Assembly (NCBI GenBank): GCA_963677485.1
Contig: OY781964.1
Coordinates: 2,571,288-2,635,287, forward strand
Direction: 5' to 3'
Source of the DNA: Armatimonadota bacterium
GTDB lineage: Bacteria > Armatimonadota > HRBIN16
DNA: 64,000 nt
In this document: in pieces, positions 6,753 to 8,881 of the stretch
Layout: each line of letters starts with the position of its first letter
Position numbering within the stretch: position 1 is the stretch's first letter
The notes under the pieces: generated by a model
Seen by the model: the letters and a program-made list of their open reading frames with translations, nothing else
What the model was told of the DNA's origin: nothing
The model's database searches: none
Translations under genes and position numbers: made by a program

Positions 6753-6991
6753 TCCCCATGTCCGGTTTTTGCGAGCGCGAATGGAAAAACTTCGCCGCTG
6801 CCGTGTGTTCTTAGAAGCCAGCTAGCCACAGTGAATGTCCATTGGGAATCCACCATATCGTCCACTAGAAGCACGGCACCGCGTGGCAACTTTTCCGAGA
6901 GCACAGCCAGCGAACCATCCACATTTCGCGCTTGCTGAATGCTGTTGGCCAAAAACTTCCGCTCTGGTCTCTGTTCTGTCCTATGTAACAC
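6749..6991 (-). CDS. ComFC-like phosphoribosyltransferase C-terminal segment; in-frame continuation of recQ across a single TAG
   Basis: ...[24 protein letters not shown]...[15 protein letters not shown] matches the ComF/PRTase signature (Q..Ls..eR..Nv.gaF.v...g..VLLVDDV.TTG.T). The reading frame is identical to recQ, with only a TAG at 7004-7006 between them ([16 protein letters not shown]). Confidence 0.55.
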
Positions 6992-7003
6992 TTCATGATA
7001 CGG

Positions 7004-8881
7004 CTAGTTGAGAGCGGCTGCCAGACGCCTGGCAAAGTCCGGCACCAGCACAGGATGACGCAGCGACGGGATGCTGGTGACCCATGCAAGAGCTGGCTGC
7101 ATAGCCCATTCGCGAACAGAAGCCGCACTGGCCGCGACCAATTCCTCACCGAAATGCCCCAGCGAATACTTCCCCAACCGCACTGCCTCACCCCAGCCCG
7201 CATCACCCCAGTAACAGAGGGCTCGACCGGTTTGGGCATGTTGATTGGGCGGGATATTTCCCTTCATGCCATACTGAGGCATTCCCCAATTGGGCCACTT
7301 CTTGCGCGGTGTGATGGGAAGACTCGTGCGCCGCAGGAAAGCTGCAGCCTGGAGCTGCAGCTGTGCATCGACAGAGACCGGTAGCGGCGCGATATCTGGC
7401 TGTGTCAGCCCGCAGATGTCACCATCCAATGCATTGATTAAAAAGGCCATGTGTTCATCTTTGAAATCGACATACTGCTGCATCTGCTGTTGTTCATCAC
7501 GTCGGAGGGATGTCAGCCTTTCCGCCCGTTCCCAGAAGCTGTGGTGCAGGTTCGTGGTGGTGAGCTGCCATCGGGTGCCTGTTTTAGCGATCGGGGCGGG
7601 TGATTCCAGCGAAAGCAGATCAACCGTCTTGGATATGCGTCCCATACTGATGTTTAGTCTGGCGCACATCTCCGGCACTGATAATCCGTCAGGCTCACGC
7701 CCCAATGCCTCGATGATCAGCCTGACTTCGTTCTGAGAAGGGAATGCGGATTCGATGAAGAAGTCGTTGATCTCCTGCTCCTCCTCTCCGCTCAGCAGAA
7801 CCCCGTATGCAGAGTCAAGCGCGCGGCCCGCGCGACCAACTTGCTGGTAATAGGTCACTACCGAGCCAGGCGTCTGGTAGTGAATCACGAACGACAGATC
7901 AGGCTTATCAAAACCCATTCCCAGCGCAGGCGTAGCCACCAGCGCATCCAGCTCATTATCAAGCAAGGCTTGCTCCAAGCGCTCGCGCCGTGAGGCATCA
8001 TCATCGGAAGGCTGATCGCCGCCTGTGTATGCCTCCACATTCAACCCATGCGACTTCAGCCAGTCTGCCACCAGATGGGCGTCGCGCTTGGTGAGCACGT
8101 AGATAATGCCGCTGCCTGACATTCGGGGCACCTGCTGAGCCATCCAAGCCAGACGGTCAACCTGAGAAGGCATGCGAATCGTCTGCAGGAACAGCGATGG
8201 ACGGCTTAAGTCACCCCGCATCACACGCAGCTCTGGGCCCAGCACAGCCTGGAGGTCAGCCATCACACGGTTGTTGGCGGTGGCGGTGGTGGCTAGCAGG
8301 CGCATATTGCGCGGCAGCGATCTCATGATCCTCTCAATCGACCGGTATTTTGGACGGAAGTCGTGCCCCCAGTCCGAGATGCAGTGAGCTTCGTCTATCA
8401 CCAGCAGCGAGATGCTCTGGGCGATATGTGCCATCACCATAGAAACAAATTCCGTGTTGGTCAGACGTTCGGGCGAAATGAGCAGGATATCGACCTCGTT
8501 GCGATGTATGGATTCGATCACTGAAGCCCAATCGTCCGTATTGTTGGAGTTGATGGTGGCGGCGTTGATGCCCATGCGTTTCGCGGCTGCGATCTGGTTG
8601 CGCATCAACGCCAGCAGGGGGGAGATCAGCAGGGCGGGGCCGCTGCCGCTGTCACGAAGAATCCGCGTGGCGATGAAATAGACAAAGCTCTTGCCCCAGC
8701 CTGTCTTCTGCACAACCAGCCGCCGCCCTTTGTTCTCCACAATGTGTCCAATCGCTTCAGATTGGTGTTCACGGAACTCAGCCCTGGTGTCACCTACACC
8801 CAGCCGCAACAACTCATGCGCATATAACGGATTGTAATCCACGTTACCTCCTCGATACATACACCTGCGATGGCACGTCAT
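7004..8881 (-). CDS. recQ: RecQ-family ATP-dependent DNA helicase whose C-terminal tail begins a ComFC-like PRTase domain
   Basis: Walker A QKTGWGKSFVYFIA, DEAH box VIDEAHCISDWGHDFRPKY, and a helicase C-domain. The C-terminal about 150 aa is not RecQ-like and runs into the PRTase segment. The likely true start is a GTG at about 8842, preceded by GAGGAGGT. Confidence 0.85.
   Translation of the reverse strand: MTCHRRCMYRGGNVDYNPLYAHELLRLGVGDTRAEFREHQSEAIGHIVENKGRRLVVQKTGWGKSFVYFIATRILRDSGSGPALLISPLLALMRNQIAAAKRMGINAATINSNNTDDWASVIESIHRNEVDILLISPERLTNTEFVSMVMAHIAQSISLLVIDEAHCISDWGHDFRPKYRSIERIMRSLPRNMRLLATTATANNRVMADLQAVLGPELRVMRGDLSRPSLFLQTIRMPSQVDRLAWMAQQVPRMSGSGIIYVLTKRDAHLVADWLKSHGLNVEAYTGGDQPSDDDASRRERLEQALLDNELDALVATPALGMGFDKPDLSFVIHYQTPGSVVTYYQQVGRAGRALDSAYGVLLSGEEEQEINDFFIESAFPSQNEVRLIIEALGREPDGLSVPEMCARLNISMGRISKTVDLLSLESPAPIAKTGTRWQLTTTNLHHSFWERAERLTSLRRDEQQQMQQYVDFKDEHMAFLINALDGDICGLTQPDIAPLPVSVDAQLQLQAAAFLRRTSLPITPRKKWPNWGMPQYGMKGNIPPNQHAQTGRALCYWGDAGWGEAVRLGKYSLGHFGEELVAASAASVREWAMQPALAWVTSIPSLRHPVLVPDFARRLAAALN

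Follow-up and report, generated by a model that had tools for sequence, protein, structure and literature searches.

A premature amber codon, probably of recent origin, in the PsyrT toxin gene of an Armatimonadota PsyrTA module

PsyrTA, also called RqlHI, is a known toxin–antitoxin pair that has been reported to be protective against phage (bioRxiv 10.1101/2022.05.11.491447). Here we analyse a copy of this module carried by an Armatimonadota bacterium with a genome of ~5.2 Mb (assembly GCA_963677485.1), within a stretch of 64,000 nucleotides (contig OY781964.1, positions 2,571,288 to 2,635,287; referred to below as the window, in whose own numbering all window coordinates are given). The toxin gene, psyrT (rqlH-like), lies on the minus strand, and its reading frame is interrupted at codon 613 by an amber codon, TAG, at 7004–7006. 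We consider it very probable that this codon is the product of a recent, lineage-specific T-to-A nonsense mutation, which truncated the toxin gene of the module while psyrA, the antitoxin gene, was kept.

Translation of the minus strand between 8881 and 6749 yields one frame that is interrupted only once, by the TAG at 7004–7006, in agreement with an earlier prediction, made from the sequence of the window, that a lone in-frame TAG interrupts a RecQ-like frame. The length of 705 residues proposed at the time needs correction: the frame has 710 codons when counted from the ATG at 8881, from which an open reading frame (ORF) runs to the TAG (7004–8881), or 697 when counted from the GTG at 8842. 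This GTG is the likely start of psyrT, since a Shine–Dalgarno-like GAGGAGG (8847–8853, minus strand) is found 4 nt upstream of it, and since public gene calls use it both for the 612-aa product of the window, which is present there in exact form as P0121, and for the two closest relatives. The Shine–Dalgarno region is the same in the window and in one of these relatives, L081. Counted from the GTG, the 5′ part of psyrT (7004–8842, minus strand) consists of 612 codons ending at the premature TAG, and corresponds to a RecQ-like superfamily 2 (SF2) helicase, followed by a middle region and the initial ~110 residues of a phosphoribosyltransferase (PRTase)-like domain. Past the TAG, the frame stays open on the minus strand for 84 more codons, up to the original TGA at 6749–6751; this severed 3′ part (6749–7003) holds the remainder of the PRTase core. 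The 3′ part continues the frame of the 5′ part, and aligns residue for residue to the C-termini of homologues. As the open continuation keeps all family-invariant residues, it represents the homologous 3′ end of psyrT rather than a chance event.

The identity of the locus follows from profile searches with both gene products. The read-through translation matches the PADLOC PsyrT profile with an E value of 8.6e-263, over profile positions 8–688 of 689. In Pfam, the toxin matches DEAD and Helicase_C, and the helicase motifs Walker A (TGWGKS, 8687–8704) and DEAH (8384–8395) are readily located on the minus strand. The helicase also passes the NCBIfam model recQ_fam, TIGR00614, with 226 bits against a cut-off of 219.8. 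The possibility that it is a canonical RecQ repair helicase is ruled out by its scores against the RecQ equivalog models, which are below cut-off for both TIGR01389 (257 bits, cut-off 640) and NF008279 (195 bits, cut-off 1015), the match to such models being confined to the helicase core at residues 34–384. The adjacent gene, psyrA (rqlI-like; 5478–6746, minus strand), is intact and encodes a DprA-like antitoxin of 422 aa, the exact product of which appears in public gene calls as P0124. It matches the PADLOC PsyrA profile at 4.4e-112 (profile positions 1–392 of 398), with a secondary match to the ShosA profile at 5.1e-27, and in Pfam it matches DNA_processg_A (1.7e-34) plus SLOG cluster4. Aligned to a close relative, psyrA has no disruptions, and the first 148 residues are identical. 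Its ATG at 6744–6746 follows 2 nt after the original TGA of psyrT (GAT TGA TG ATG), a typical coupled junction.

The locus thus resembles PsyrTA in having the same pair of genes in the same order, a RecQ-like helicase–PRTase toxin followed by a DprA-like antitoxin, with a tight stop–start junction. It differs in that the toxin frame is broken by the TAG at codon 613, and in that the encoded toxin is without the phosphoribosyl pyrophosphate (PRPP)-binding loop. Because the TAG severs 84 codons, and because the 78 orthologues that cover the site are uninterrupted there, we classify the locus as a member of the PsyrTA (RqlHI) toxin–antitoxin and anti-phage family by descent, in the form of a disrupted copy. 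What had been described as RecQ with a separate PRTase continuation is instead one PsyrT/RqlH toxin gene. The work of Sberro et al. in 2013 is reportedly also a source for PsyrTA as a toxin–antitoxin and anti-phage system, beside that of Millman et al. in 2022.

The C-terminal domain of the psyrT product begins near residue 500, and the TAG at codon 613 cuts through it. The stop is therefore located inside the PRTase-like domain, and not, as the original prediction had it, between RecQ and the PRTase continuation. Pfam finds no PRTase match, either in the 84-aa tail alone or in the full read-through protein; the domain was identified via PADLOC, via precomputed PF00156 matches on homologues, via a motif-level sequence match in the Protein Data Bank (PDB), and via a predicted structure and fold search. 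The domain that was modelled is the C-terminal domain of the homologue P0007, which is 66% identical (mean predicted local distance difference test score, pLDDT, 76; predicted template modelling score, pTM, 0.73). A fold search of this model against the PDB retrieved ComF, adenine PRTases (APRT), PurF and the ShosT structures 8zvd and 8zvc, and on account of these matches the domain is predicted to adopt the type I PRTase fold. The residue aligned to the TAG is a nearly invariant Leu, just past the first strand–helix unit of the PRTase core. Lost together with the tail are the conserved RPEQKxMANSxQQARN loop and the PRPP-binding strand–loop. The PRPP-binding loop motif (residues 657–666; 6845–6874, minus strand), which lies downstream of the stop and is hence absent from the product, aligns with the PRPP loop of PRPP synthetases, and in the P0007 model it forms a strand (E193–197) followed by a loop, inside the PRTase fold. 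The 612-aa product keeps the helicase and is left without the catalytic flexible loop, the PRPP pocket and three core strands.

The ancestry of codon 613 was reconstructed with an orthologue set obtained by a scan of species-representative genomes, which yielded 80 loci, 78 of them covering the TAG site. A comparison with orthologues had been proposed earlier as a check for a sense codon at this position, and one is found in all 78: the encoded residue is Leu in 63, Ile in 11 and Val in 4, and a stop is found in none. The closest relatives are particularly informative. The 90% identity cluster of the 612-aa product includes two intact proteins of 697 aa. One intact relative, L081, comes from an Armatimonadota metagenome-assembled genome (MHB1463064.1, GCA_054606775.1), and its gene has 96.2% nucleotide identity to that of the window; the other, L084, comes from a Logan assembly, and its gene is 93.2% identical. 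Both genes align gap-free to the window gene, with TTG at codon 613 in place of the TAG of the window; to each side of this codon, 15 bases are the same in the window and in L081. Since both relatives have TTG, and the flanks are unchanged relative to L081, the alignment indicates that one T-to-A transversion made TAG from the ancestral TTG (Leu613), after the window lineage split from that of L081. The gene order DUF302, psyrT, psyrA, URO-D is common to the window lineage and the L081 genome. Recent nonsense mutation and pseudogenization, one of the explanations initially offered for the TAG, is thus upheld by the nearest relatives and by the wider family alike.

Disruption of psyrT is also seen in other genomes. 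An in-frame stop is present in L022 (position 4082, residue 28) and in L031 (position 4292, residue 105), L052 has a single in-frame stop (position 5057, residue 364), and L066 has a frameshift at ~5926–5964. About 5% of PsyrT copies in species-representative genomes are disrupted, each at a different site. Breaks scattered in this manner indicate that inactivation events are common in psyrT, and would be the expected pattern of random inactivation, not of a recoding site. PsyrT products that consist of the C-terminal part only, 233 aa from a conserved internal Met, are encoded on long contigs (L086, 2960–4702; L085, 4001–5703). In L086, a 340-aa helicase gene is directly upstream of the 233-aa piece, which makes this a split gene. 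For L085, the gene calls show no helicase upstream, and the PRTase-like piece precedes a DprA-like gene, in an arrangement like that of ShosTA. A systematic recoding site, as might be suggested by C-terminal fragments of 233, 244 and 322 aa, was considered and rejected: L086 is a split gene, L085 is without the helicase, and the breakpoints differ from that at codon 613. The lengths of the fragments recur because internal start codons are conserved.

We polarized changes among the three close sequences (the window, L081 and L084). Upstream of the stop, the window lineage has acquired 7 non-synonymous and 22 synonymous changes, with all 7 of the former at family-variable positions. The 84 codons downstream of the stop carry 3 non-synonymous and 3 synonymous derived changes. 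The former constitute a lineage-specific missense cluster, Q628R, S630F and M631L (6950–6961, minus strand), in the conserved RPEQKxMANS loop, where Q628 is found in 77 of the 78 orthologues and M631 in 73, and where L081 and L084 both keep Q, S and M. Positions conserved at ≥93% are hit by two of the three downstream changes versus none of the remaining 25 missense changes across the three lineages (Fisher p = 0.008), and only 21% of downstream positions are conserved at ≥90%. This suggests that constraint on the psyrT tail has been relaxed, which argues against a functional read-through product.

Programmed or tolerated read-through, in which a leaky TAG would give mostly the 612-aa helicase and a little full-length toxin, either as two isoforms or as a dose-limited toxin, is one of the two alternatives that survive best, and we regard it as very improbable. 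It could draw on the open downstream frame with its family-invariant residues, and on the identity of the base after the TAG, which is C; a stop followed by C is a relatively weak termination context in E. coli. However, no orthologue has a stop at this site and the closest relatives have TTG, which means that a recoding site is not conserved here. For the 128 nt that span the stop and extend beyond it, the minimum free energy is −28.6 kcal/mol versus a shuffle mean of −33.5 (z = +1.37); with 191 of 200 shuffles folding equally well or better, this region folds no better than shuffled sequence and forms no stable structure. Moreover, no other stop is used as often in the window as TAG, and the replacement of nearly invariant residues in Q628R and M631L argues that the tail is not under selection. 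The RecQ and RecQ–PRTase isoforms that programmed read-through had been proposed to produce are not supported by these results. Even less probable is a particular version of the idea, in which the amber codon is kept because low-level UAG-C read-through supplies trace amounts of PsyrT, an effector limited in dose that would track termination efficiency, for example under phage-induced translational stress, with the 612-aa product as a stand-alone helicase. If this were true, trace read-through would convert a dangerous toxin into an effector limited by its dose.

The other alternative, an error of sequencing or assembly in an organism whose psyrT is truly intact, with TTG or a different sense codon, is attractive in that all orthologues are uninterrupted fusions at the site, and in that one base separates the TAG allele from an intact gene. 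We nevertheless find the TAG allele, in a 100% identical context, in ENA ERZ21831265 on the 5.19-Mb contig ctg82166l, and in three Logan assemblies, each of a different run (ERR12015700, ERR12015701 and ERR12035211). The sole mismatches, 24 bases, are confined to the final 27 nt of a single Logan contig and resemble an artefact of the contig end. An exact-pattern scan of JGI metagenomes around the stop (GCCGCTCTCAACNNNCCGTATCATGAAG) gave no match. There is no homopolymer at the site, the context of which is CTCAACTAGCCGT. Nor would a one-base error explain the unusual missense changes just downstream. Since the TAG recurs in the 5.19-Mb contig and in the assemblies of three runs, and lies outside any homopolymer, a random error is very unlikely, and sequencing error, also on the initial list of explanations, is not supported.

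There is only a very slim chance that the gene now works as a two-piece protein, with the tail translated from the in-frame GTG at 6989–6991 and complementing the truncated domain in trans. An 80-aa ORF with this GTG start does exist in the same frame (6749–6991). However, the GTG has no purine-rich ribosome-binding sequence ahead of it (the upstream sequence is CTAGCCGTATCATGAA), the ORF is absent from the public gene calls for the contig, the split would be inside the PRTase core, past the first strand–helix unit, and no orthologue is split at the position of codon 613. Decoding of TAG as an amino acid, through pyrrolysine or a suppressor tRNA, is extremely improbable, having nothing but the open downstream frame in its favour, and is rejected on stop-codon usage in the window: TAG ends 22 of the 48 long ORFs, both genes flanking psyrT included, and the TAG-ended URO-D homologue has 327 aa, as do most members of its cluster. 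There is also no tRNA gene within the window, 64 kb being a small sample of the genome.

As these counts imply, TAG is the commonest stop among the long non-overlapping ORFs of the window, which include 28564–30582 and both neighbours of the locus, and genome-wide reassignment of TAG is as unlikely as the original prediction held. Of the two genes that it cited for TAG as a genuine stop elsewhere, the ORF at 28564–30582 is a sound example; the TAG at 45660–45662 qualifies only as the close of a 610-codon plus-strand frame, overlapped by a minus-strand ORF. Within 43830–45851, this plus-strand frame overlaps an ORF of 602 aa on the minus strand (44043–45851).

Returning to the nonsense mutation as the favoured explanation, its consequences can be pictured as follows. 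psyrT normally gives rise to one 697-aa protein, comprising the RecQ-like helicase, the middle region and a C-terminal PRTase-like toxic domain. With the T-to-A change of Leu613 from TTG to TAG in the window lineage, translation ends within the PRTase-like domain, after the first strand–helix unit. The resulting protein of 612 aa retains the helicase, with the catalytic flexible loop and the PRPP-binding loop gone. Such a protein would be expected to be non-toxic and to have ceased to be the effector of the module, with the loss of toxicity and of defence both being predictions from what is missing. With psyrA intact, the loss of the toxin and retention of the antitoxin would be the safe direction of module decay.

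These expectations draw on experimental work with homologous systems. In extraintestinal pathogenic E. coli F11, RqlI binds and restrains the genotoxic RqlH (Russell and Mulvey 2015; PMC4670107). E. coli RqlH ceases to inhibit growth and to induce the SOS response upon deletion of the PRTase domain (aa 509–690), and equally upon mutation of the PRPP pocket, either as DIVD663EVME or as the single substitution D663A, while RqlH truncated to residues 1–509 does not co-precipitate with RqlI (PMC4670107). The window pair has the same architecture as RqlH–RqlI, and its PRPP loop motif is the equivalent of the DIVD663 pocket of RqlH. The window allele resembles the experimental non-toxic, PRTase-deficient variants, but it is not a deletion at the domain boundary, as approximately the first half of the domain is kept. 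Because the PRPP pocket and three core strands are gone while the helicase is kept, and because PRTase-deficient forms of E. coli RqlH are non-toxic, the 612-aa product is most likely a non-toxic remnant and no longer the module's effector. Its helicase may still be active, given that the C-terminal PRTase domain of Mycobacterium smegmatis RqlH is reported to be dispensable for ATPase and helicase activity, as cited in PMC4670107 (reference 21 there). Like the read-through translation of psyrT, as far as sequence comparison goes, M. smegmatis RqlH is a RecQ-like helicase with a C-terminal PRTase domain.

A further point of comparison is ShosTA, which consists of a PRTase-domain toxin and a DprA-like antitoxin (PMC11961720; PMC12961424), and in which binding of PRPP is indispensable to the toxicity of ShosT (PMC12961424). 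The window locus shares with ShosTA the combination of PRTase toxin and DprA-like antitoxin, its PsyrA matches the ShosA profile, and the domain model matches the ShosT structures 8zvd and 8zvc. Unlike the toxin studied here, however, ShosT is without a RecQ-like helicase, and the best profiles of the window proteins are PsyrT and PsyrA, not ShosT and ShosA.

Several points weigh against recent inactivation as we describe it. The 84 codons beyond the stop have otherwise been kept well, which is compatible with a very recent event, but also with continued use. The contrast between non-synonymous and synonymous changes, 3:3 downstream versus 7:22 upstream, is non-significant (p = 0.32), with small counts, and the changes found beyond the stop could predate it. 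The long contig and the three Logan runs represent the same strain, and so might not count as independent biological samples. For the loss of toxicity, the basis is work on the E. coli homologue and not on the window protein; directly supported are the TAG and its ancestry, its recurrence across assemblies, the assignment to the family and the fold of the domain.

Around the locus, a 420-nt spacer upstream of psyrT, between it and the DUF302 gene, holds a strongly self-complementary element of ~320 nt (8925–9245). The element is closed by an 18-nt perfect inverted repeat, CTGTAACTACTCAGCCAT (8937–8954 and 9220–9237), which extends further with mismatches, and inside it are several GC-rich hairpins based on CCCACTTCG / CGAAGTGGG. 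On both strands, its folding is much better than that of shuffled sequences (z = −5.9 and −8.0), and it is 98% identical in L081. A search of the element against Rfam gave no match, even at E = 10. A second copy of the hairpin modules, GCACCCACGAAGTGGGTA...TATAGCCAGGGGTGAGCGAAGCGATACCCCTGG...CCCCGAAGTGGGTCG, is found in the intergenic region 36310–36530, and a degenerate match to the terminal repeat at 27831–27848. The idea that the element is a PsyrTA-specific non-coding RNA or a retron-like RNA was rejected on the grounds of the missing Rfam match and of the recurrence of the modules at ~36310–36530. Because of this recurrence, we assign the element to a dispersed repeat of the genome, similar to repetitive extragenic palindromes (REP) or miniature inverted-repeat transposable elements (MITE), and not to PsyrTA.

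In general, the window has many short intergenic repeats. Reiterated CCACGGATTAC / CACAGATTACGCAGATT repeats (families D5, D9, D11, D12 and D15) are located at 13306–13576, 19871–20107, 27717–27753, 30636–30801, 33605–34152 and 45690–45732; they are intergenic and often present in both orientations. At 37257–38694 and 40060–43975, the repeat families D2, D3, D4 and D13, with 79–85% identity and a spacing of ~1.0 kb and ~1.96 kb, indicate what appear to be tandem paralogous duplications of neighbouring genes. Past the URO-D gene, ~1.6 kb downstream of psyrA (5478), is a gene for an IS110-family transposase of 473 aa (2411–3832, minus strand; Pfam DEDD_Tnp_IS110 and Transposase_20, from a public gene call); L081 carries other genes there. 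On the other side of the module, L081 has an extra gene for a 102-aa helix-turn-helix (HTH; XRE-type) protein at 4610–4918 of its own sequence, between a 211-aa gene and the DUF302 gene, which is absent from the lineage of the window (compare L082).

The case described here is an ordinary young pseudogene in a known system, and involves no new biology. Its significance is in part one of annotation: profile-based defence finders would call PsyrTA present even though the effector is truncated, and the truncated psyrT will probably be annotated as just a RecQ helicase. It also provides a clean, datable example of toxin–antitoxin decay in which the toxin is the first to go and the antitoxin stays. 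Finally, the intact sister allele, which has 96% DNA identity to the window allele, makes with it a natural mutant/revertant pair for the part played by the PRTase domain of PsyrT.

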